From positions 29,965 through 93,964 of the IMG/VR virus record IMGVR_UViG_3300029429_000001: a stretch of DNA of 64,000 nt. One strand, written 5' to 3'. The first letter of the stretch is position 1; each line of letters starts with the position of its first letter. Below, in pieces: positions 6,481 through 38,320 of this stretch. This DNA is from a virus. The notes below the pieces were generated by a model. The model worked only from the letters and a program-made list of their open reading frames with translations. It searched no databases and was not told the DNA's origin. The position numbers were made by a program, and so were the translations under genes.

Positions 6481-6497
6481 TGTGCATATGCTGCACA
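6481..6497. promoter_or_regulatory. operator TGTGCA-N5-TGCACA
   Basis: Perfect arms, upstream of the leftward operon starting at 6386. Confidence 0.65.
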
Positions 6498-8590: not shown

Positions 8591-8664
8591 TGGAGCGGCA
8601 AGCGGGAATCGAACCCGCGTCATCAGCTTGGAAGGCTGAGGTTCTGCCATTGGACCATTGCCGC
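8591..8664 (-). tRNA. tRNA-Gly (TCC)
   Basis: GCGGCAA acceptor stem, TTCCAAG anticodon loop, GGTTCGATTCC T-arm, encoded CCA. Confidence 0.95.
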
Positions 8665-10329: not shown

Positions 10330-10390
10330 AATACCGATTAAACCTCTAAATAGTATTGATATGGTATTAAAACGATATCTTTTTGATACT
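10330..10390. repeat. 11-bp-phased RRTAYY array A
   Basis: Hexamers at 10330, 10352, 10363, 10374, 10385 (degenerate at 10341). Confidence 0.75.
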
Positions 10391-10394
10391 TTTG

Positions 10395-11018
10395 TCAGTT
10401 AACCGATTTCATGACTGAGCCCGATCTTTCAACGTCATCACAGCAAGCAAATAGCACATTACCTATTGAGGGGTGCATGAGCCTGGCGACTCGATCGAGC
10501 ACTTCGAGTTTAATCTCGCTGGAGAATTCACCTGCCGGTACCGGCATCATGACGCTCTCAAATTTCTTGAGCGCTGCCTCTAAATCTGCCGGGATCAAAC
10601 TAACCTCAGAGCTATTTTGCTTGGACATATCGACTTCCTTTTTAGCTGGTTCTGAAGTCTTGAATGCGACCTCTCTTGGCCGGACTGTACTCTTAATAAT
10701 TACCGGTGCCGGCGCGGCCTTTTTAGGCTGCACTTTCTTGGCTGGCTGTACTTTTTTGATTGGCTGTTTTTTCTTTGCCGGCGCGATCTTGGCTGGCGGC
10801 TCTTTCGGACCTGGACCTATGGGATTGGTACTCAGTACTTCACCCAGGATATAAACCCTGCCGACTTTCATTAATTTCCCCTCATGAACAAGGGTCCTAA
10901 TGGTCATGCTGACTTCTTCACGGGATTCGGTCATATCCGTGCTTTCGTAAATACCCAGGGATGCCAGGCCCAAACTGGATTCTTTAACCGCGGCTATAAT
11001 TTCTTCATCTAGGGTCAT
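10395..11018 (-). CDS. hypothetical protein with N-terminal wHTH-like domain and K/P/A linker
   Basis: ATGA overlap at 11018; EVSMTIRTLVHEGKLMKVG. Confidence 0.65.
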   Translation of the reverse strand: MTLDEEIIAAVKESSLGLASLGIYESTDMTESREEVSMTIRTLVHEGKLMKVGRVYILGEVLSTNPIGPGPKEPPAKIAPAKKKQPIKKVQPAKKVQPKKAAPAPVIIKSTVRPREVAFKTSEPAKKEVDMSKQNSSEVSLIPADLEAALKKFESVMMPVPAGEFSSEIKLEVLDRVARLMHPSIGNVLFACCDDVERSGSVMKSVN

Positions 11019-13073: not shown

Positions 13074-13571
13074 TTAAATCCTTATCCAGCCTCGGGCGAT
13101 CAATGCGGCCTCCAGCTGCGGGTATATCAGGCCTTTCGTGACCATATCGGAATCTGCACGCATCAGGGCTATACCAGCCATCACAGCGTGATTACCCTTC
13201 TCACAGTCCCGTTGATAGCCATCAGGCGTTAAGTGCCCGCTAATCGCCGTAGAACCGTCTTTACGCTTTTGCCCATGGTTTCTAGTGCCACCATCGACTT
13301 CGAGCGCCAGCCTGTAATCAGGCCAGTAAAAATCTAGTCTCCATTTCCGAGTATCATGAAACTTAAACTCGGAAATCGGACCAGGGAGGTTTAAGGCCCT
13401 CAGATCCCTAAGGAACCGAAGTTCAAGAGGTGATCTGGTTTTTTTATTTAGCCTAGGGTGTTTGGCAGTTCCGTTTTTTGAACCTGAAACATTGCGGTGC
13501 TTCGATTCTGGAATTTTGACTTTGCCTGAAGAGATGAGCATATCCAGCTCAGCTTGCTTCAATCGAGTCAT
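13074..13571 (-). CDS. DUF559/Vsr-like PD-(D/E)XK endonuclease
   Basis: EFKFHDTRKWRLDFYWP...LEVDGG...RDCEKGN. Confidence 0.82.
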   Translation of the reverse strand: MTRLKQAELDMLISSGKVKIPESKHRNVSGSKNGTAKHPRLNKKTRSPLELRFLRDLRALNLPGPISEFKFHDTRKWRLDFYWPDYRLALEVDGGTRNHGQKRKDGSTAISGHLTPDGYQRDCEKGNHAVMAGIALMRADSDMVTKGLIYPQLEAALIARGWIRI

Positions 13572-13612: not shown

Positions 13613-13629
13613 TGTGCATGTGTTGCACA
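13613..13629. promoter_or_regulatory. operator TGTGCA-N5-TGCACA
   Basis: Perfect arms upstream of the long leftward operon. Confidence 0.65.
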
Positions 13630-14608: not shown

Positions 14609-15166
14609 ATGTCAACGACAACCCCAAGACATGAAATAAACCCCTTTCTAGTGGGAATGGACGTAACCGTAGGGTCCTCACAGGTTAGAATCTCCACTCT
14701 TGGTAAAGATGATAACATCATGATTAACCAGTCCACAGGAGAGGTCACAGGCACTCACATAGTGGCGAGAAAGAAGATAGACAAGACTAAATTTGTTAAA
14801 ACCTTCGCAGATTACATTTCTTTTACATTCGACTTAACAAAAGCAGGCAATAAGGCCTTGCGAGTAGTCATGTGGGCCATTAAAGAGAACGCGATAGGAA
14901 AGGACCAGGTTGTTCTAGATAAGTACACTCATGAAGCTTTCATGAGCCACCACAGCGACCAAGAACCGCCGTTAGTCCTGAGTAAGCCTACATTTGGGCG
15001 GGGGCTTGGTGAATTAGAAAAAGCCAAGATTATCGCAAAAGCTAAACGCATTGGAACTTACTTTATTAATCCAAACTGCATATTTAATGGCGATCGTGTG
15101 GCGTTCACAACGATCCTAGAAAACAGCAATAGTGACGATACCCAATCACAAGGATCACTGATATAG
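14609..15166 (+). CDS. repL: RepL-family replication/maintenance protein
   Basis: NPF...TGEV...FVK.F, wHTH TFGRGLGELEKAKII, YFINPNCIFNGDR motif. Confidence 0.82.
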   Translation: MSTTTPRHEINPFLVGMDVTVGSSQVRISTLGKDDNIMINQSTGEVTGTHIVARKKIDKTKFVKTFADYISFTFDLTKAGNKALRVVMWAIKENAIGKDQVVLDKYTHEAFMSHHSDQEPPLVLSKPTFGRGLGELEKAKIIAKAKRIGTYFINPNCIFNGDRVAFTTILENSNSDDTQSQGSLI

Positions 15167-17045: not shown

Positions 17046-17062
17046 TGTGCAACAGGTGCACA
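17046..17062. promoter_or_regulatory. operator TGTGCA-N5-TGCACA
   Basis: Perfect arms upstream of the korC-like/repA operon. Confidence 0.65.
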
Positions 17063-20879: not shown

Positions 20880-22898
20880 ATGACATTTTTTGATCCAGAG
20901 CAATACAAAGCAGATCAGTTTTTAGTGATGACGGCATTTAATAAAATGCTGGCCGGCACTGAAGATTTTCCCATTGAATTTACGGACCCGGACGGCAATG
21001 AAACACTGGCATACATTGGCCAGGGCAAAGCCTATCAAGCCGGCGAGCTTGCTGGTTTTTGTGCTGAGCTTAAGGCGCTGGACCCTGAAACAGGGGAGGT
21101 ATTAAGCCTGCCGGTTGATTTTGTAAAGATATGCGAGGTACCCGAGGTAGCTGAGCCACCAGCCCAGGAAACAAAACAGGCAGCATCTAAAATTGCAGCT
21201 GAGCTTGTGACTGCAGCAACAAAGGCAGCGGCCGGCACCGTCAAAATTGCAGGGGTTGACCTTACACCCGCCAGCCAACTTAAACGCCCTAAGGCGGCCG
21301 CTAAGCCCAAGATTGAACCAGTACAGCCAGAGCCAAAGAAAGCTAAGCTTGTGGCCGTAGAAGGGCAGGGGACCACCCCCAAAGCCACCCCCAAGGCTGA
21401 AGTCGCACCCTTAACGGTTAATGAGCCGCTAGTGCTGGCGGATATCCCAGCCGAGACCAATGACAGCGACACCAGGCGCATTACCAGCCTTAAAATCACT
21501 AACATCATGGGCATAGATGAAATGCTCATACCCTTAAACGGAGTGGCCACCTTTGTTGAAGGCGGGAACGGGCAGGGTAAAACGTCGGCCCTAAAAGCTG
21601 CCCAGGCGGTAATCGGAGGCGGGTACCCTGCAGAGTTAATCCGTAATGGCGCCGAATCCGGAGAGGTTGTACTGGTAATGGATGATAAATCCACCGTGCG
21701 CAAACTCATCTCTCACAAGAAAAGCAGCACCACCATCGTTAAAGATGAAGCCGGCAAAAAAATAAACGCTCCTCAGAAATTCCTAAACACGTTATTCGAT
21801 AGCGTCGCCGTGGACCCGCGGGCGTTTCTTGATTCCAATGCTAAAAAGCAAGTACAGCTAATGCTCGAAGCCTCGCCTATGAGCCTGACTGTAGAGCAAG
21901 CTGCCCAGGTAGCCGAAGTGGCGCCAGAGGTGGATCTGACAGAGCACCCACTCTACGCCCTGGATTCAGCAATCAAATATATCAATGCCGATCGCACCCA
22001 AACCAATGCTGACATTCGATCCCAGGAAGCTTTTAGAGGCCGGATTAAAGATGGCCTAGCAGAACAAGAGGGCGATACCACTAAGGACCTGGACGGCCTA
22101 AACGAGAGTTTGGCCACAGAAAAAGACAAACTAAATAAGGTCCACCAGGTTTGCAATGATGATACCAATACCATCAGAGAGGAAGCGGATAAAAACAAGC
22201 ATGAAATCAGCCTGGAAAACGCCGATGAAATCGAAAAGCTACAGGACAATAAACGCGAGCTCGAGCAAGAAATAGAATCACTCCAGCAAAGAGCGGCCAA
22301 CCTGGCTCAAGAGGCGGCGCTCATTCAGGCTAAGTGCGATAGCAAGGCTAATGAAAATATCCCTCGCCTGGAAGCGATCACGGCCAAAATGGGAACCGAC
22401 ATATCAAACCGCAACGCTGCCGCCATGGTCGAGCAAAATTCCCTAGAAAATGAAATTGCAGCTATTGAGCGTAACATTCATAACTACAGCCACTATCAAC
22501 GTAGCCTGGATAATATCGCCGGATATGACGCAGAAATTAAGGAATCAAAGGACCTTAAAAATAGCCTGGATAGCCACCTGGAATTGATCCAAAAGATTAA
22601 ATCAGAGATCTTAAAATCCATCCCCATAGACGGCCTGGAAGTGACTGAAGAGGGCATATTCCATGGGGGCGTTAAATTCTCTCTACTCAATACAGCCATG
22701 AAAGCCAACATCGCGATCAAGGTGGCCGTCATGCGCCTGGACCAAAACCCGGACGCTGTACGCCTGGTAATAGTGGACGGTCTCGAGTCGATGGATAGCG
22801 GTACCATTCACGCACTCATTGACGCTGCAGCCCATCAAAATGTACAGATATTCGGTGCCAGGACCACAGACAACGAACTAGCCATAACCCACCACTAA
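20880..22898 (+). CDS. SbcC/RecN-like coiled-coil ATPase with N-terminal extension
   Basis: Walker A GGNGQGKTS, long coiled coil, Walker B IVDGLESMD. Confidence 0.85.
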   Translation: MTFFDPEQYKADQFLVMTAFNKMLAGTEDFPIEFTDPDGNETLAYIGQGKAYQAGELAGFCAELKALDPETGEVLSLPVDFVKICEVPEVAEPPAQETKQAASKIAAELVTAATKAAAGTVKIAGVDLTPASQLKRPKAAAKPKIEPVQPEPKKAKLVAVEGQGTTPKATPKAEVAPLTVNEPLVLADIPAETNDSDTRRITSLKITNIMGIDEMLIPLNGVATFVEGGNGQGKTSALKAAQAVIGGGYPAELIRNGAESGEVVLVMDDKSTVRKLISHKKSSTTIVKDEAGKKINAPQKFLNTLFDSVAVDPRAFLDSNAKKQVQLMLEASPMSLTVEQAAQVAEVAPEVDLTEHPLYALDSAIKYINADRTQTNADIRSQEAFRGRIKDGLAEQEGDTTKDLDGLNESLATEKDKLNKVHQVCNDDTNTIREEADKNKHEISLENADEIEKLQDNKRELEQEIESLQQRAANLAQEAALIQAKCDSKANENIPRLEAITAKMGTDISNRNAAAMVEQNSLENEIAAIERNIHNYSHYQRSLDNIAGYDAEIKESKDLKNSLDSHLELIQKIKSEILKSIPIDGLEVTEEGIFHGGVKFSLLNTAMKANIAIKVAVMRLDQNPDAVRLVIVDGLESMDSGTIHALIDAAAHQNVQIFGARTTDNELAITHH

Positions 22899-22958
22899 AT
22901 ACTAATAAAGTATCATTTCGGTATCTTTTCAATACTTATATAGGGTTGAATAGATATC
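22898..22958. repeat. 11-bp-phased RRTAYY array B
   Basis: Hexamers at 22898, 22909, 22920, 22931, 22953 (degenerate at 22942). Confidence 0.75.
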
Positions 22959-23034
22959 GAATTGGGGCTTTTACCCTTCTATTTTTCTCCCGTTGCTGTT
23001 ACCGTTCGCAAATTACTTGATACAGGTTTCCAGC

Positions 23035-23364
23035 ATGAGCCAAGACGAAAACACCCTACTTCCATGGGAAAGCAACACCCACGATCGCAGTTTTGATGCT
23101 GATTCAGGGAAAACGGCTAACGCCGATATTAGCCAATATGACATTGAGTGTATTAAGATCCTATCAGCTGCAAAACAGCAAAGTCGTATATCATACATAG
23201 CCAATGCGATCAGGCAGAGCATCCAAGCTGATGTGGACGCACTGATTGAAAAAATCGGCATGGATGGCGTTAGACGGCATTACTCTCAAATATTGCTTAA
23301 AGAAGAAGAAAAACAGGAAAAAAAAGTAGCCAGGGCCAAAAAGAAAGCCCAGCAGCAACAATAA
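23035..23364 (+). CDS. putative ribbon-helix-helix (centromere-binding-like) protein
   Basis: PWE motif, then strand KTANADIS, helix QYDIECIKILS and helix SRISYIANAIRQSI; charged C-terminal tail. Confidence 0.55.
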   Translation: MSQDENTLLPWESNTHDRSFDADSGKTANADISQYDIECIKILSAAKQQSRISYIANAIRQSIQADVDALIEKIGMDGVRRHYSQILLKEEEKQEKKVARAKKKAQQQQ

Positions 23365-23380
23365 AAAATAAGGGAGCGTC

Positions 23381-24457
23381 ATGACTTATCTAATGCATAG
23401 ACTTGCAAGCCTAATGACCGTTGCTGGATTGGGTCTTTGCCTATTCTCGCTATCGCTCTCTGCAATTGTATTCAGCTCAATTAGTAACGAACTCCACTAC
23501 AAAATTATCTATAGCGGTTCAGCGATTTTGCTGGAGATCATAAAGTTCGGCCTAGTCCCCTTTACCTTGTATTTTTATTTTAAAGGCAAGAAAATCGTCG
23601 CTGGATTTATTGCGATTGGCTTTATTTGCCTAATGGCTGTTTCGGTTATTGCCAGCATCGCCGGCCTTAATAAAGGCAGCAATAACATGGATAAAGGGTA
23701 TCAAGAGGCTATAGCCGCTAAGGCAAGTATCACCGCCAAGATTACCAGACTGGAAGGCATGATCGACTCGCGAGACAAAGAAATTCTGTTTTACCAGGGC
23801 GAGGAAAGGATCAAGTCCGAGGTGGTATCGCGCCGAGCGGCAAACACCCAAGACTTAGCCGAGATTGACAACTTAATTATAGATCGGGCGGCCATCGTTG
23901 TTCCGGATCGGTCAGCCCTACTCCAAGGCATAGATGCCGTAAGCTCAATGATTAATGTCGAATCCACAGGAGATAGCAAGGCCATAGTGTATGCCGCATT
24001 CTCAGCGATTATAGAAATATTTGGTGCTTTAGCGCTGGCGGTTGGAGAAATTATATTCGCAGCCCGAAAAGAAGAAAAAACCGTCGCAGAAAAAAGGGCC
24101 TCAGTCGAGGCCGTTGCTGCAGATGAACGCCGTTATTCTCATGAGAAAGAACTGGCACACATTGATAAAGAAAAGGCGGTTGCCATAGCCACAGGTTCAG
24201 CAACTCGATCACTAACAGCCACCAGCTCACCAACAGCCACCAGTTCAGCGCCCACTAAAAAGAAAGCCCAGGTAATCCCCCTGGTAGTTCCTGAGGCACC
24301 ACCGGAGGTCAAGGGACCTGCAGATAAGATCATAGCCGAGATAAAACTGGCTATTGAAGAATTCAGAGTAAGCAACCCACCAAAAGCTAGAGAGATAAGC
24401 GCCCTAGGGTATCCTTCATCCGTGGCAAGGCAAGCCGAGCGTTATTTCCAGGGCTAA
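23381..24457 (+). CDS. membrane protein (3 TM, coiled coil, TM, cytoplasmic tail with possible HTH)
   Basis: Hydropathy pattern read by eye; GGGAG RBS. Confidence 0.75.
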   Translation: MTYLMHRLASLMTVAGLGLCLFSLSLSAIVFSSISNELHYKIIYSGSAILLEIIKFGLVPFTLYFYFKGKKIVAGFIAIGFICLMAVSVIASIAGLNKGSNNMDKGYQEAIAAKASITAKITRLEGMIDSRDKEILFYQGEERIKSEVVSRRAANTQDLAEIDNLIIDRAAIVVPDRSALLQGIDAVSSMINVESTGDSKAIVYAAFSAIIEIFGALALAVGEIIFAARKEEKTVAEKRASVEAVAADERRYSHEKELAHIDKEKAVAIATGSATRSLTATSSPTATSSAPTKKKAQVIPLVVPEAPPEVKGPADKIIAEIKLAIEEFRVSNPPKAREISALGYPSSVARQAERYFQG

Positions 24458-24575
24458 TCACCCTGTTTTTTTTAATCCAGGTATAGACCTAATAACCCTA
24501 CAAAATATGTGGGCTGCTGTGTGCACACTCTTTTTCTTTTAAGTGCGTGTTAATCAGGGGTTTTATGAGTATAGC

Positions 24576-24592
24576 TGTGCAATAAATGCACA
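24576..24592. promoter_or_regulatory. operator TGTGCA-N5-TGCACA
   Basis: Perfect arms in a convergent intergenic region. Confidence 0.6.
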
Positions 24593-24598
24593 CAAGAT

Positions 24599-24628
24599 AA
24601 AAAAGGGTCTTTATTAGACCCTTTTTTT
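24599..24628. terminator. bidirectional intrinsic terminator
   Basis: AAAAAAGGGTCT-TTATT-AGACCC followed by a T run. Confidence 0.75.
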
Positions 24629-24634
24629 ATTTGC

Positions 24635-25663
24635 TTATGAGAATTGATTGCTACGCATGTTGGTGCGCTTGTTAAACAGGGCAGGGGAGCTGGCAACCGG
24701 CGCCTTACCATTTGCGTCATCAAGGATCACCTCGGGAGCATCCGCTTCAAACTTAGCGCGTTTAACGCCAGCCTTTTGGATGGTAACGAATAGTCCAGCC
24801 ATGGCAGTAGGGCAGCCATCCAGGATTAAATCCTTAGTTTCCTGGTCCAGTCCACCCACACCCAGAGTATTCTCAACGCTATCAAGGATCTGCTGGCGTA
24901 AACCTTTTTCCTTTTCAATGGCGCTTTCAAGTACTGCGATCGCTTCAACCTTTTGAGTTAGCTCATCACGGGCACTGGCGAACTCACGTTCAACACCATC
25001 CAGTACAGCCTGGCCAAAAGCGGCAGCCTCTAATTCAGACTTGTAGGCCTCAGCTTCTTCGATGGCCTGGCCCTGGAACTGGAGTAGGGTAGCAGCACTG
25101 TCATCAGAGTTAAGGCCGGCAGCCATTAGGCTATCCAGGATAAGTTTATCCTGCTCACCATCGGCATCATCCAGGATGTAGCCGCGATTTTCGGCAAACA
25201 ACGGGTTACGAACATAATCAAAGCCCTTGAAGGAATCCAGGATGGTATTCATCCCCTTTTTACCACCGCCACAAGCCCAGCTAAAGCCGCCTACCTTAGA
25301 ATTGTGCATACCCAAGGCCTTCTTGCCTTCGTCGTTATCAAGGATCTGCTGGATGTGTCTCAGGTTGCCCATGGAGTCCAGCTCCAGGGTAGTGGTCACG
25401 TTAGACGGTACCGCATCAAAAACACCAACGGCGCCGCCAACTTTAACTAGGCTCTTTTCTTCAGGATCGAGACCGATAAATTTACGGACACCATGGCCAA
25501 AATAACCAACGATTTCGCGCAATTTCAGGCTTTCTTGCACCTGGTTACTATCAAGGACACGGCGTACATTATCTAAAATGTAATTCCGTTTCTGGCCGGT
25601 AAACTGGCGGCCACTATCCAAAATATTAAATTTACAGTCGATCTCATGCAGTACGGTAGCCAT
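24635..25663 (-). CDS. pro: P1 Pro-like prohead processing protease
   Basis: GRQFTG..RNY, GYFGHG.R, PSNVT, GGFSWA, GFDYV.NP; directly after the portal, as in P1. Confidence 0.85.
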   Translation of the reverse strand: MATVLHEIDCKFNILDSGRQFTGQKRNYILDNVRRVLDSNQVQESLKLREIVGYFGHGVRKFIGLDPEEKSLVKVGGAVGVFDAVPSNVTTTLELDSMGNLRHIQQILDNDEGKKALGMHNSKVGGFSWACGGGKKGMNTILDSFKGFDYVRNPLFAENRGYILDDADGEQDKLILDSLMAAGLNSDDSAATLLQFQGQAIEEAEAYKSELEAAAFGQAVLDGVEREFASARDELTQKVEAIAVLESAIEKEKGLRQQILDSVENTLGVGGLDQETKDLILDGCPTAMAGLFVTIQKAGVKRAKFEADAPEVILDDANGKAPVASSPALFNKRTNMRSNQFS

Positions 25664-27369
25664 TAGGCCTCCTCATTTTCTTCGGGTAGGATCTCGGAAA
25701 GAATGCCGTATACAGCACTCCTCAAGTGGGGGTCTTGCTGTGTAAAGGGGGTAGTCGCGGAATCAAAGATAGGCGGCTTGGCTGGGGCGGCAGGGGGGCC
25801 ACCAGGGGCACCATCACCACCACCATCGCCGGCAGGTGCACCCTTAGACTTAACGGCCTTATATTCTTCTTCAGTCATGCCCAGGCGCGTCACCAATATA
25901 TGGCGAACGTATGCGCCCCGGTCCACTTCCTGCCACTCAGGGTCCATGGTTTGAACAACTGTAATTTCCATGGTGGCGGAATTTAGTTTCGACTCGAACG
26001 CGGCCTGCTCTTCACGTTCAACTGCAGTGGCCGTGCTATTAAATACAATTTTCCAGGGGAGCTCACCTGGATAGACCTTGCCGGTTTTCTTAAATAAATG
26101 GAGCTCAGCTAGCTCGTTCATTGTGTCTGCAGCAACAGAGCGAACCGAGTTTGCATAGGCGCCGGCCATTAAGGAGACTTGAAAAAATCCGCCGTCGCCT
26201 AATCCGCCAGACAAGTCTTCAGTAAAACCAAATAAAGCTTTGTCGATTCCCAGAGACGCGGCCAACAAAGACACACGAAAATGCATATCCTCGATGTGCG
26301 CAATATCAACAGGGTTAACTTCGGTTTGAATTCCGATCTCGCCAGTAACGGGAATAATCACGTTTTCTACACTGGTCCTGGCGCCGGTCTCGTATTCTTT
26401 ACGCTTGCGCTTGGATTTTTTGGAGCGGAATAGATTTACTACCTGGCCATAGTATTTAGCGGCTGCAGTGGGCGTCTGGTTCCCCGTGTTAACAGTGATA
26501 AAACGCTCTTTGCGGCCTGCTTTCTCCCTGGCGATATCCAGCGATCGCATTGCCTTGCGTAATGATATGTACGGCTCATAAACCGTCTCAAATAGGGACC
26601 GGCCATAATTCTGGCTTTCGATTGGGTCCTCGTTATCCGTGTCATCAGAGCGGATATCGAAGCGTAATTTATCCTTCCAAACTGGCTCCAGTTTTTGGTC
26701 TATATCCAGGGATTCCATCTTAAAAGCGATGAATTTCCAGGGCTCAAAAAGCTGATAGGTGCCATTACTATGGGTTTCAATATCTGTTTTATGCAGATAG
26801 CCCACGGTATTGCCGGCCACTTCATATTCTTTTATCTGGCTGGGGTTGGTATAGAAGTCATTGCGAATAGAAGTGATACCAATGCCGTCTGTAACATTGG
26901 GGCGCACATAGCAGACACCGTTTTTAATTGCGGCATACATCCACTTACGAATATTTTTGTTAAATAGTTGCTGCAGGTCTTCACGGAGAATTTTAGCCTC
27001 GGGCGTTTCCTTTTCGCCAATAGACTCAAACCTTAGGATTTCGCCACTCTCAGTCTTAGGCGCCAGGGCGTTATTGAGGTGGTGATTTAAGGCTGTATCA
27101 ATGATGGGATCTTTCGCCATCATATCGTAGCAGTGGTACCGGTCCAGGCGATTGTCTGGCAGTAGATACTCGCTAGACAGGTACTCATCAACATCAAAAA
27201 TGTCTTGAGATACGTTCCGGAATAGTTCGTTTAATACATGGTGGGTATTGAAGCCATCGAACGGGGGCAGCTCAGAGGATGCCTGTGACAGGTCCACATC
27301 CTTACCAAACCCGTAGCGCCCCCAGAGGGCCTTAGCCTTACTTGCTTTCTTTTTTTCAGCCATGACCAC
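25663..27369 (-). CDS. prt: portal protein (P1 Prt-like)
   Basis: 568 aa; MAKDPIIDTAL, ESQNYGRS, LGIDKALFG..LSGGLGDGGF. Confidence 0.88.
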   Translation of the reverse strand: MVMAEKKKASKAKALWGRYGFGKDVDLSQASSELPPFDGFNTHHVLNELFRNVSQDIFDVDEYLSSEYLLPDNRLDRYHCYDMMAKDPIIDTALNHHLNNALAPKTESGEILRFESIGEKETPEAKILREDLQQLFNKNIRKWMYAAIKNGVCYVRPNVTDGIGITSIRNDFYTNPSQIKEYEVAGNTVGYLHKTDIETHSNGTYQLFEPWKFIAFKMESLDIDQKLEPVWKDKLRFDIRSDDTDNEDPIESQNYGRSLFETVYEPYISLRKAMRSLDIAREKAGRKERFITVNTGNQTPTAAAKYYGQVVNLFRSKKSKRKRKEYETGARTSVENVIIPVTGEIGIQTEVNPVDIAHIEDMHFRVSLLAASLGIDKALFGFTEDLSGGLGDGGFFQVSLMAGAYANSVRSVAADTMNELAELHLFKKTGKVYPGELPWKIVFNSTATAVEREEQAAFESKLNSATMEITVVQTMDPEWQEVDRGAYVRHILVTRLGMTEEEYKAVKSKGAPAGDGGGDGAPGGPPAAPAKPPIFDSATTPFTQQDPHLRSAVYGILSEILPEENEEA

Positions 27370-27392: not shown

Positions 27393-27439
27393 AGTCTATG
27401 GGGTCAGAGGGGAGGGTTTTGTGCCGTCGAATGTGTGTT
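27393..27439 (-). promoter_or_regulatory. putative late promoter (prt-pro)
   Basis: AACACACATTCG-N29-TAGACT. Confidence 0.8.
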
Positions 27440-27758
27440 ATTGCCCTGGCTGGATTTTTACGTTTTATAGACTAAGCTTTTAGTAGTGACCATTGATTAA
27501 GGGAGGTTATAGGGGCGTTTTTTCAGTCGTTGGGGGATTGCGGGATAGGGCCGTGCTCCAGAGGCGTAGAATTGCCCCTGGAAGGGTATATCTATTCAAT
27601 CGATCAATACCCTCCCCTATACATGAATTTCCGATAAATATCTATACCGGAAATTCAAATTATCGGGATAATAGGGGGGTTGGGTTTGTTTCAGGCATAA
27701 AAAAACCGGCACTTGGCCGGTCATTAATCGAACTATTAGGAATTACCGAATAGTTGAA

Positions 27759-28470: not shown

Positions 28471-28553
28471 AATACCTAATTGGTATCATTTCAATATCAA
28501 AACAATACCGAATTAATATCATTTAAGTATCAATTCGGTATCGTATAGATATT
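28471..28553. repeat. 11-bp-phased RRTAYY array C (8 units)
   Basis: AATACC 28471, GGTATC 28482, AATATC 28493, AATACC 28504, AATATC 28515, AGTATC 28526, GGTATC 28537, GATATT 28548. Confidence 0.88.
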
Positions 28554-28562
28554 TATAGGGTT

Positions 28563-35449: not shown

Positions 35450-38320
35450 CTAGTTGTTTTCGGATTGGATGGAACTCTTGAGGGGGGTGCTGGCGTTGAA
35501 TCCGCCGTGCACATGAGTAGGCTCATAAAATGAACTGGCCCTTTTTTCAATACGGGCTTTATCGAAGGTTCCTGAGCCCATCAGCAGCTCCTCCATGGCC
35601 ACAAGGGTCGTGATCTCAGTGTTTTCAAGGGTCGCTATATGTATGTCATTAGCGTCTTGGTGTTTGCGTATAGAGGACAAGCCACCGGTCTTGTCCAGTA
35701 AGAGCTCAATTTCCACGCCTGGGGACACATCAAACGAATGGGAGAATTCATAGTTAGTTTCTTCAACTACAACCTGGCCACCGGCTATCATGGATTTCCA
35801 ATGGCTTAGCAGCTGCTCGCGATAGTTTTTTGATTGGTCGAGTTTGCTGTGTTCATCGACTGAAAATTCGCGCTCCTCTTCAGTAACACCCGCCAGCAGC
35901 CCCATCATGAATTCAAAGGCTTCCGGGTCTTTGTGCTGCAGAGTGGCGGCTCGGGCTGGTGTGGACAGCTCTTGAGTGAGCATGGTGAAAATCTCGGTAA
36001 AGCCGTCCTTGTAAACTTTGCCCTGGTAGGCATTTACAAAGTTATCCTTAAACGCTATTTCAGTGTCTTTGTAGTTTTTGTTGTTATTAAGAACACTCAG
36101 CTTTTCGGGCTCAGTTTCTCCGGACTCGGCCGCACGGCGCCTTAGGAATGAATTGGCGCCGGCCTTGATCCTCGGGTTATTTTCGAGAATGTGGGTTAGC
36201 TCATGGAAGGTGGTACCACGTTCAACGCCGGTCCCCAGGTTGTATCTGTACGCCGGCACATTAGCGCTCGCTCGGACCTTCTTACCTCGCTTTTCTGGCG
36301 GGAAATAATCCACGGTCAAATAGGGAATGGCTCCATGGCATAGTTGGTAGAAATCAGCCACATCTTGTTTAAATTTCTTAAGCCCACGATCTCGCTTAAT
36401 TACCTTGAGGGCGGCCGGCTCGATCGTTATTGAGCCGGCCCATTTTTTAGCCTGCTTATCGGTTATAGGGCTAAGGGCAACTACTCCCTTTATTAGCTCT
36501 TCACCGGCTGCAGCTAATTTCTTTCGAGGCTCATTTTTGGCTTCCCGCAAGGCATCAAAAGCGAGCTCCTTAACCCTCCTCATCTCGGCCCATTCTTCGA
36601 GAGAGATATCATCCGCCCCATCACCATAAGCGGCATCATTTACCTTTTTCTTGGCAGCCTCATAGGCGATGTACTCGGGCAATTTTTGGAGCTTGTCGAA
36701 GTCGCCACGGTCGTTAATATCCCCCATGATCGTGGTTATATTTTCGGCTGCCAGGCCTTTTAGATATGCCCCGTCCTGGTCCAGACGTTTGAGCCCAAGT
36801 GTCTGCATTGCCCCCCTGGAATCCTGGAAAATATCGCCTTCAGATCCTTCCTTCATTCGCTCGATAGCCGCCTCAATTAGGGCGTTTTTATCATCGTCAA
36901 TTTGGGCGGATAGCAGCTGGTTAGGGTTGTTTTCTTTTAGGTATCTAAGGGCGGTCGAGATCGATGCCAGGCTCGATTGCTCATCAAGAACAGTGGCCAG
37001 GGCTTCATTGCTTTTGGCGTCCTTGATATCGGCCACAGACAGGTTTGAAAGGAATAAGCGCTTAACACTGGCCATGGTAGAAAGTATTAAAACAGCCCCA
37101 GAAAAGCCCCGTTTTGATACTAATTTGATACCGTTTGAGGATCTATCTAGTATTGTTTCGGTATTTTCCTCTAAAGTGACCTCGGACCACTCAGTGTTGA
37201 CACCATCGAGAATAAGGACTAAATTTGGGTTGTTGGACTCGGAGTTATGCACTAAGTCAGCCGCGTTTCCTCGCTTATGCTTGAGAGACTGTAATGGGAA
37301 TGCCTGCGCCCCCTCCGAGTCCAATAACACCTCTGTTTCATGTTCCCTGTTTTCACCATTCCCATAGTCAGCCGGGACTAGAAAACCATTCCAAACCAAT
37401 GCCCCTTTTTTAACCGAAACATTCAGTGGAAATGCAGCGTGCGTTTTATCCTTTGATACCCTCATGCCGGACTCAAGCATAAGGACACCTGAGGTATGTG
37501 GATGCCTAGGATCTGTGTTTGTGTAAACCCTGCCATCGATCGGCTTTGATCGAGATCCCTTTAGAAGATTGACCAGCTTCCGAACATCCTGCCTATGCCG
37601 AAGATAAATATGTGCAAGCTGGGAACCTGTAACAAAAAGATCTCGCTTCCCTGAAAATCCAGGGTTAAGTTTTGCCAACTTCTTAACTACGGTGGGAGAC
37701 AATCGCCCCAGCCTAAACACTGGAGACTTGTCTTTTCTCTTCTCAATTTTCATCAATGCAGATCGACTCCTGCCCTCGATGAAACTGAAGTATTCGGCCA
37801 AGCTCAAACGAGACTGAGCGGAATCTAGGACCTGGCTTGGAACATCCAGTACCCCCACCACGGCGCGCACTAGGGATTTAAACTCCTCGATAGGCATGGC
37901 CACGATCGGACCTAAAAATAATGGGTTATCGTACTGGGCAAGGTAGGCATCCCGGGCAGCTTGCTCGGATGAAAAGCCCAACATAACTTTATCTTCATCG
38001 TAATATTCTGGGCATGCGCAGCGTGCCGGCACAGACTCGCAATTAGGGCAGGAATCCCCAGGCCACTTGCTCACCTTTTCAATGGCGTGCTGTTTAACAA
38101 TGTAGGCATATTCGGCTTTGCGATCGGGACCGATATAAACGTCTAAGGCTTCCCCATCATTGCCAAGGGCGCCGCCGCGGATATAGCCATAATCCCACTT
38201 CATTTCTATTTCCCAATCCTGGCCATGAGGATCGGTGCCGGCGCGGATATCGCCTTGCTGATTTTCGATGGCTATGGATAAGCCCTGGAATGAATAACTG
38301 TCTTGCAGAGTAAAAGTCAT
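35450..38320 (-). CDS. polyvalent protein: inorganic pyrophosphatase domain, possible PBECR-type nuclease, HExxH metallopeptidase
   Basis: IAIEN..G..R.G.D..G..W...DYGYI...DGEALDVYIG...DEDKVMLGF; LAHIYLRH; FHELTHILE. Confidence 0.75.
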   Translation of the reverse strand: MTFTLQDSYSFQGLSIAIENQQGDIRAGTDPHGQDWEIEMKWDYGYIRGGALGNDGEALDVYIGPDRKAEYAYIVKQHAIEKVSKWPGDSCPNCESVPARCACPEYYDEDKVMLGFSSEQAARDAYLAQYDNPLFLGPIVAMPIEEFKSLVRAVVGVLDVPSQVLDSAQSRLSLAEYFSFIEGRSRSALMKIEKRKDKSPVFRLGRLSPTVVKKLAKLNPGFSGKRDLFVTGSQLAHIYLRHRQDVRKLVNLLKGSRSKPIDGRVYTNTDPRHPHTSGVLMLESGMRVSKDKTHAAFPLNVSVKKGALVWNGFLVPADYGNGENREHETEVLLDSEGAQAFPLQSLKHKRGNAADLVHNSESNNPNLVLILDGVNTEWSEVTLEENTETILDRSSNGIKLVSKRGFSGAVLILSTMASVKRLFLSNLSVADIKDAKSNEALATVLDEQSSLASISTALRYLKENNPNQLLSAQIDDDKNALIEAAIERMKEGSEGDIFQDSRGAMQTLGLKRLDQDGAYLKGLAAENITTIMGDINDRGDFDKLQKLPEYIAYEAAKKKVNDAAYGDGADDISLEEWAEMRRVKELAFDALREAKNEPRKKLAAAGEELIKGVVALSPITDKQAKKWAGSITIEPAALKVIKRDRGLKKFKQDVADFYQLCHGAIPYLTVDYFPPEKRGKKVRASANVPAYRYNLGTGVERGTTFHELTHILENNPRIKAGANSFLRRRAAESGETEPEKLSVLNNNKNYKDTEIAFKDNFVNAYQGKVYKDGFTEIFTMLTQELSTPARAATLQHKDPEAFEFMMGLLAGVTEEEREFSVDEHSKLDQSKNYREQLLSHWKSMIAGGQVVVEETNYEFSHSFDVSPGVEIELLLDKTGGLSSIRKHQDANDIHIATLENTEITTLVAMEELLMGSGTFDKARIEKRASSFYEPTHVHGGFNASTPLKSSIQSENN

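Follow-up and report, generated by a model that had tools for sequence, protein, structure and literature searches.

Why does a phage genome carry centromere-like arrays of short palindromes directly ahead of an operon in which a small, putatively DNA-binding protein is followed by a membrane protein? The question is raised by a 64,000-bp stretch of DNA (the window), bases 29965-93964 of the 93,964-bp IMG/VR virus record IMGVR_UViG_3300029429_000001, where the slot beside the prohead protease gene pro holds an array of RRTAYY hexamers (array 2) and the genes orf109 and orf358. A first-pass annotation of the same DNA had read this locus as an atypical partition system with the orf358 protein as the segregation partner in place of a nucleoside triphosphatase (NTPase). 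By comparing the phage with its relatives, we arrived at another answer: the arrays may be the sites of a type Ib partition adaptor, and the window's phage a ParA-less derivative with orf109 and orf358, an explanation to which, as a whole, we give about even chances. Positions are those of the window unless stated otherwise and are collected in Table 1.

Phased hexamer arrays and the clade that carries them

A motif of three RRTAYY hexamers, each 11 bp from the next, has 10 matches in the window where shuffled sequence would give 0.01, and all of them are confined to 10352-10390, 22898-22936 and 28471-28553. The distances between RRTAYY pairs show sharp maxima at 11, 22, 33 and 44 bp; chaining of the hexamers resolved four arrays, three of them intergenic and the fourth inside a gene. 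Chains of at least four hexamers were observed four times and never in 200 block shuffles, and the first 30 kb of the genome hold no hexamer array. The exact 11-bp array ahead of the two-gene unit and the two further arrays listed in the first-pass annotation were all recovered; array 4 had been missed.

Array 1 lies between two minus-strand genes, downstream of a 212-amino-acid (aa) open reading frame (stop at 10395) and upstream of orf59/ssb, and not ahead of a plus-strand gene. Array 2 begins at the stop codon of the gene for a 672-aa AAA_23 ATPase, and 77 bp separate the end of the array from the ATG of orf109. Array 3 occupies the space between the stop of darB (28563) and the start of ulx (28418), both on the minus strand, a position that is kept in all four relatives described below, while array 4 lies within a 956-aa minus-strand gene. 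The motif TATAGGGTT has two copies in the 94-kb genome, one within array 2 and one abutting array 3, both on the plus strand although the genes downstream lie on opposite strands. Between orf78 and the portal gene, where the relatives have a true array, the window's phage has two inverted repeats, GGGTAT...ATACCC and GAATTTCCG...CGGAAATTC, which are partly array-like hexamers.

The record is linear, without end repeats, has 48% G+C and an estimated completeness of 95%; among public sequencing runs only a seawater metagenome, which may be its source, contains it in full, and no RNA run is listed for it. The phage is marine. Matches to P1 at 24-49% identity cover the portal, the prohead protease Pro, DarB, Ulx, DdrB, DarA, sheath, capsid, baseplate and PacB, by which the window's phage is a distant P1-type phage. 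A comparison with P1 ParA, ParB, RepA, RepL, C1 and Lpa found no homologue of any of them. The earlier description of a P1-like element unlike the ParABS system of P1 holds in this respect (ParA, ParB, RepA and C1 homologues were not found); as for the "P1-like plasmid prophage", the structural-gene matches uphold the first half of the phrase, the plasmid life being putative.

An IMG/VR scan with the fixed array pattern returned mostly unrelated tandem repeats, plus one locus (L102) that encodes homologues of the Pro, the HrdC and a 165-aa protein of the window's phage. The record of this locus, G001, is 67 kb long with terminal repeats and 39% G+C, one of its proteins is known at NCBI from Photobacterium toruni, and it is 25-53% identical to the window's phage over most structural genes. 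Through an alignment of the two Pro proteins we found three further genomes, G002-G004 (78-82 kb), and the four relatives together are P1-like phage-plasmids of Photobacterium, Vibrio and metagenomes. With a slightly relaxed core, RRYAYY, the counts of arrays were 4 in the window's phage (G000), 11 in G001, 11 in G002, 13 in G003 and 7 in G004, against 0 in P1, 0 in a more distant relative (G006) and about 0 in shuffles. Non-coding DNA, about 9% of the five genomes, holds most of 31 of these 46 arrays, and arrays stand on both sides of ulx in each of the five phages. We conclude that 11-bp-phased arrays are a trait of this marine P1-like phage-plasmid clade. Several arrays lie inside one long gene in G003 (24714-26305, four within 1.6 kb) and in G002 (21267-22384), and in these two genomes array sites appear to be written into coding sequence.

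The ParA cassette of the relatives and the slot in the window's phage

In G001-G004 without exception, the gene of a 219-220 aa ParA comes next after an array at the 3' end of pro, and after it that of a 106-121 aa protein, hereafter the adaptor. These ParA proteins match Pfam AAA_31, CbiA and MipZ above threshold and NCBIfam ParA_partition with an E value of 1e-33; they are 54-57% identical to one another, and that of G001 is 46% identical to the ParA-like orf60 of phage D6. The adaptor is strongly conserved in its C-terminal half, which reads as strand-helix-helix, and the alignment of the Photobacterium and Vibrio adaptors (A5) has an invariant W, SEK, L-x-E-x-YRE and KHL-x-Q. The best sigma-70-like promoter of G001 at this place, TTGATT-N17-TATAAT (10/12 matches), overlaps the last two hexamers of the array, which fall in its spacer. 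On the other side of the array, G002-G004 carry a replication-initiator-like gene. Read from these sequences, the layout is that of a type Ib partition cassette whose sites are dispersed in the manner of omega, and in three of the genomes it adjoins a plasmid replicon. In G003, the stretch from a 294-aa Rep-like gene to the par array contains four GGGATCT repeats and a DnaA box, TGTGGATAA, and is probably the plasmid origin. With a syntenic array preceding ParA and adaptor in four relatives, the first-pass view of the arrays as being of the centromere/operator kind used by small adaptors was borne out.

The corresponding slot in the window's phage has no ParA gene. Across the whole 94-kb record there was no CbiA Pfam match at E values up to 1, tblastn with the ParA of the relatives (G001) gave only matches with E values above 0.7, and neither ParB_N nor ParM domains were found, so that the search of the rest of the genome for parA or parM, which had been proposed earlier as a check, came back empty by Pfam and tblastn. 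The 77 bp between array 2 and orf109 leave no room for a ParA remnant. With 95% of the genome in the record, ParA is likely to be absent from this phage. The genes upstream of array 2 encode a PDDEXK exonuclease-like protein, RecT and the AAA_23 ATPase; the last was considered as a partition motor and dropped, being a widespread phage ATPase of the recombination/repair type, here beside RecT. The arrays, their conservation in the clade, their synteny with the ParA cassette and the lack of ParA here can be read directly from the genomes, and as centromere-like sites of a ribbon-helix-helix (RHH)-type adaptor the arrays are well supported at the sequence level.

The hexamers differ somewhat within the clade. 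CA/TG hexamer centres make up 24-31% in G002-G004 versus 0-8% in the window's phage and G001, and the relatives with the looser core also differ in the strand sequence of their adaptor. This covariation of core and strand hints, if weakly, at a reading of the hexamer by the adaptor.

The candidate array binder, the membrane protein and competing explanations

Which protein might read the arrays in the window's phage? The orf109 protein consists of an acidic N-terminal tail with LLPWE, a putative RHH core (about residues 25-75) and a Lys-rich C-terminal tail. Those of its neighbours in the ESM Atlas that have a family, whether found by features or by structure, are all RHH proteins (CopG, Arc, DUF6290 and TacA). 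The tail motif L-L-P-W-E of orf109 corresponds to L-M-P-W-E in the G001 adaptor, its W being invariant across the adaptor family, and the hhalign register is common to the PW tail motif, S-x-K and the next strand; the W, S-x-K and a few hydrophobic positions are all that orf109 has in common with the A5 adaptors. When the adaptor was compared with the genome of the window's phage by tblastn, orf109 was the only match, a very weak one. Searches with phmmer of orf109 and the G001 adaptor against PDB sequences gave chance-level rows only, and word-index searches with orf109 and orf358 returned only themselves. The 212-aa tyrosine recombinase of the clade was considered as array binder and dropped, and so was the conserved protein of 165 aa with its nuclease-like motif; the clade-specific conserved proteins other than the adaptor are recombinase-, nuclease- or transglycosylase-like or structural, and none looks like an array binder. 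By its position, its tail motif and its RHH-like Atlas neighbours, orf109 appears to be the likeliest array binder, its fold is putatively RHH, and the balance tips slightly towards its binding the arrays.

According to the above-described analysis, we propose that the clade keeps a type Ib cassette beside pro, the small adaptor of which would bind the arrays cooperatively. The adaptor sites would have been copied to several places in the genome, as for omega (pSM19035) and StbA (R388), so that one protein would both bind the centromere and repress its own operon and others. In the window's phage the slot would have kept the array together with a small protein that has diverged strongly, orf109, with the ParA gene gone and the unrelated orf358 gene following. 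Dimers of orf109 would most likely coat the four arrays, one per palindromic hexamer and all on one face of the DNA, and would control the orf109-orf358 unit, the ssb region and the ulx region, while any segregation role would be played without a phage-encoded NTPase and orf358 would be co-regulated cargo. Array binding by orf109, repression and any partition role are inferred.

Several observations weigh against this proposal. The similarity of orf109 to the adaptor of the relatives is not significant, either by BLASTP (E value 0.024 over 25 residues around PWE) or by hhalign (E values 0.033 and 0.15), and the core hexamer is alike in the window's phage and the relatives, which is unexpected if the binder has diverged so far. 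A single-sequence AlphaFold2 (AF2) prediction turned orf109 into one long helix rather than strand-helix-helix, and Pfam, PHROG, PADLOC and NCBIfam assigned it to no family; Pfam is equally silent on D6 orf61, whose sequence clearly reads as strand-helix-helix. None of the three intergenic arrays of the window's phage showed a sigma-70-like promoter, and array 4, like 15 of the 46 arrays in the clade, is situated in coding DNA. Finally, the same proteins as on this record occur on a 95.6-kb contig, so that about 1.6 kb may be unseen. Of the 109-aa RHH-like protein with a PWE motif described at first, the gene and the PWE stand, and the strand-helix-helix fold has the Atlas leads in its favour.

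The second gene of the unit starts 16 bp after orf109. Its product has hydrophobic segments at residues 8-35, 47-67, 69-99 and 200-229; KGKK in the loop at 66-72 suggests an N-in topology, and the positive-inside pattern predicts residues 97-200 to be periplasmic and 227-358 cytoplasmic. In the AF2 model (12 homologues; predicted local distance difference test, pLDDT, 80.6), a helical hairpin at 97-200 is followed by a long helix to residue 271, a disordered linker (272-313) and a confident three-helix end domain (314-357), so the hairpin would be a periplasmic coiled coil and the end domain cytoplasmic. The model check proposed earlier for both proteins gave a usable result for orf358, as against the single helix that orf109 yielded without an alignment. 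A full phmmer scan with orf358 found 15 representatives (P0003-P0017; E values down to 2e-53, nine at or below 1e-10) with similarity over the full length and one layout of three transmembrane (TM) segments, hairpin, TM segment, tail and end domain, in which E52, K55, P60 and P175 are invariant. The representatives are rare and come mostly from Logan assemblies, two of them on contigs of about 63 kb, and the Atlas neighbours are unnamed or misnamed "SecY" clusters of Pseudomonadota and phages. Across the family the C-terminal domain often has acidic residues in its recognition-helix positions and in this looks unlike a DNA binder. The membrane protein with a coiled coil of the first-pass annotation is upheld by the predicted segments and hairpin, and at the place of its possible C-terminal helix-turn-helix (HTH) the model has a three-helix domain.

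Searches for a function or a related locus gave little. Against Pfam, PHROG, PADLOC (defence) and NCBIfam, orf358 had no match, and Foldseek searches with its model (PDB and VIA-wide) found generic helical hairpins only, at Z of about 10, too low to be meaningful for helical proteins. Homologues were sought in G001-G006 and not found, which includes all four array-bearing relatives. Neither blastn of 22800-24600 nor tblastn of orf358 matched anything in the phage and plasmid collections, and searches for related loci with the AAA_23 protein, the orf358 alignments A1 and A2 and P0006 returned nothing from viral, genome and metagenome collections. It seems that orf358 may be cargo, for example with an exclusion, addiction or envelope function under array control.

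Among the alternatives, the one that survives best, unlikely as we consider it, is that orf109 and orf358 form a cargo operon, for addiction, exclusion or another function, whose arrays are operators only, with no role in segregation. A small RHH-like gene followed after 16 bp by a larger one fits toxin-antitoxin or repressor-cargo operons, and several structural neighbours of orf109 in the Atlas are antitoxins. Omega heads a toxin-antitoxin operon in pSM19035, and superinfection-exclusion cargo typically consists of membrane proteins, both of which also agree with a cargo operon. On the other hand, orf358 matches no toxin, defence or exclusion family and, as a four-TM protein of 358 aa, would be atypical as a type II toxin, and the conservation of dispersed multi-hexamer arrays together with ParA cassettes points to a partition-adaptor lineage.

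It is decidedly unlikely that the arrays are bound by a host factor of marine gammaproteobacteria or by another phage protein, to which orf109 would merely be adjacent. Such a binder would explain why orf109 and the adaptor go with the same motif and yet are not demonstrably homologous, and why part of the arrays fall within genes or between convergent ones. However, arrays occur only in phages with the cassette slot (P1 and G006 have none), the only array with a clear promoter belongs to a ParA operon (in G001), the looser core in G002-G004 goes with a different adaptor strand sequence, and no other conserved candidate binder was found.

We regard as very unlikely the membrane-anchored, NTPase-free segregation or positioning system closest to the first-pass view, in which the cytoplasmic tail of orf358 would tether orf109-coated arrays and so replace ParA. 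In its favour, this phage lacks ParA at precisely the place that the gene occupies in four relatives and yet has kept arrays and a small protein, orf358 follows closely in a unit closed by terminator-like hairpins, its sizeable cytoplasmic tail carries a confident three-helix domain conserved in the family, and NTPase-independent partition exists (StbA). However, the orf358 family has shown no tie to plasmids, to centromeres or to RHH partners, the acidic recognition-helix positions are unlike those of a DNA binder, and the low-copy plasmid state of the phage is putative. The proposal that orf358 is the segregation partner has gene order behind it and loses ground with the distribution of the family: the expected co-occurrence in related phage-plasmids was found for the arrays (4/4) and not for orf358 (0/4). 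A normal type Ib system whose ParA lies in an unassembled part of the genome, or comes from the host or a co-resident replicon, has equally poor prospects: the linear, incomplete record, the 95.6-kb contig and the W-containing tail motif that orf109 retains from ParA-linked adaptors would allow it, but ParA stands between array and adaptor in all four relatives, where this phage has 77 bp only, and the region of G001 that matches the contig ends carries other genes.

Returning to the arrays as adaptor sites, we also compared them with the other repeats of the genome. TGTGCA-N5-TGCACA palindromes occur in four perfect and two one-mismatch copies, against 0.17 expected, and probably serve the phage's own repressor as operators, in a regulon distinct from the hexamer arrays; one of them lies between two terminator-like hairpins just past orf358. 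An identical 15-mer, AATAACACACATTCG, occurs twice, the second copy 59 bp upstream of the portal start, and is a candidate late-promoter element unlike the Lpa box of P1. If these palindromes and 15-mers are repressor operators and late promoters, the arrays would be a third system, and the separate existence of both led us to drop immunity-repressor operators and late promoters as explanations of the arrays. P1 Lpa late promoters were dropped as well, their ACAAGTGACT-type -22 box being unlike the arrays, and P1 pac-type hexamers were considered and dropped.

Some further genes complete the picture. A RepL-family replication protein (Pfam E value 2e-9), preceded by 578 bp of non-coding DNA, is encoded by the sole replication initiator gene recognised, and the par-adjacent Rep gene of the relatives differs from it. 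The 212-aa tyrosine recombinase, encoded outside the window, is 49-53% identical to its counterparts in the relatives and among the most conserved proteins of the clade, is lacking in P1 and G006, and could be a dimer resolvase or an invertase. The 165-aa protein (phrog_503), with the nuclease-like motif L-A-L-E-V-D-G, is present in 5/5 array-bearing phages, and in G001 an array abuts the 3' end of its gene. There is also a tRNA-Gly (TCC) gene.

Table 1. Coordinates of the arrays, genes and other sequence elements discussed (window positions unless a genome or locus is named)
Feature	Position	Strand	Description
Array 1	10330..10390	no strand	five RRTAYY in one 11-bp phase, one imperfect unit
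Array 2	22898..22958	no strand	five RRTAYY: four consecutive, one unit skipped, fifth in phase
Array 3	28471..28553	no strand	eight consecutive perfect hexamers
Array 4	37116..37165	no strand	four hexamers in phase, steps 11, 22, 11 bp
TATAGGGTT motif	22939..22947	+	inside array 2
TATAGGGTT motif, second copy	28554-28562	+	abuts array 3
orf109	23035..23364	+	ATG start; 109 aa; LLPWE at residues 8-12
orf358	23381..24457	+	four-TM membrane protein, 358 aa; rare, unnamed family
Terminator-like hairpin with T-run	24449..24465	+	end of orf358
Bidirectional terminator-like hairpin	24599-24627		after orf358
TGTGCA-N5-TGCACA, perfect copies	6481-6497, 13613-13629, 17046-17062, 24576-24592		probable repressor operators
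TGTGCA-N5-TGCACA, near copies	18216, 18787		one mismatch each
15-mer AATAACACACATTCG	1713-1727 and 27428-27442	-	identical copies
Two inverted repeats	27580-27665		partly array-like hexamers
RepL-family replication protein	14609-15166
165-aa protein (phrog_503)	13074-13571	-	nuclease-like motif
tRNA-Gly (TCC)	8591-8664	-
212-aa tyrosine recombinase	genome 23578-24216 (L131:9578-10216)		outside the window
G003 iteron/DnaA-box region and neighbouring feature	L134 8240-8420 and 8564-9448	- (8240-8420)	probable plasmid origin

Comparison with known partition systems

The 46 arrays in five genomes define a clade in which a partition-type adaptor appears to have phased arrays all over the genome, some of them at conserved positions such as the flanks of ulx, and add a P1-type example to the omega/StbA style of coupling maintenance with gene control. 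Nature's own experiment is the window's phage, in which arrays and a small protein persist without ParA, and it offers a test case of whether adaptors and arrays still regulate, or stabilise without an NTPase, after the motor has been lost. It also offers a route to the role of the co-transcribed membrane protein; were orf358 to prove a membrane tether after all, it would stand for NTPase-free positioning or segregation of a phage-plasmid.

The P1 ParA-ParB-parS system shares with the window's phage the setting of P1-type phage maintenance, together with structural and dar genes in common, and differs in that ParA, ParB, RepA, C1 and Lpa homologues were not found in the window's phage and that P1 is without arrays. 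TP228 (ParF-ParG-parH) and D6 (orf60-orf61) resemble the relatives in the order of array, small ParA (about 220 aa) and small protein with a C-terminal strand-helix-helix-like part; unlike the relatives, D6 has no RRTAYY array upstream of its cassette. The window's phage agrees with type Ib cassettes in the repeat array directly upstream of the operon (array 2) and departs from them in lacking a cassette-encoded small ParA, its order being array, small protein and membrane protein with no ATPase.

The StbA sites of R388 follow an 11-bp cycle and lie at several promoters, and StbA gives stability without an NTPase (bioRxiv 10.1101/2022.04.29.490116). StbA/stbS is like the present system in the exact 11-bp cycle, in small arrays at several promoters plus a larger one, and in needing no plasmid-encoded NTPase (PMC3098194), but StbA has an N-terminal HTH, as against the RHH-like orf109, and binds 9-bp direct repeats, as against palindromic hexamers. 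The likeness of the window's phage to StbA is one of layout only, with 11-bp-cycle arrays at several sites and no NTPase found in the record.

The omega/parS arrays of pSM19035 overlap several promoters, omega being both centromere binder and global repressor (PMC9499535). The delta/omega system has in common with the clade a small adaptor, short contiguous repeats and several arrays dispersed over promoters, as well as a small ParA, which G001-G004 match. It differs in its 7-bp heptad, where the clade has a palindromic hexamer on an 11-bp cycle, and in its carrier, since here the hosts of the arrays are P1-like phages of about 70-95 kb with 4-13 arrays each, of which the window's phage is without a delta/ParA equivalent. 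New here are a P1-type clade with such arrays, a palindromic hexamer as the unit of an 11-bp cycle, and a derivative without ParA.

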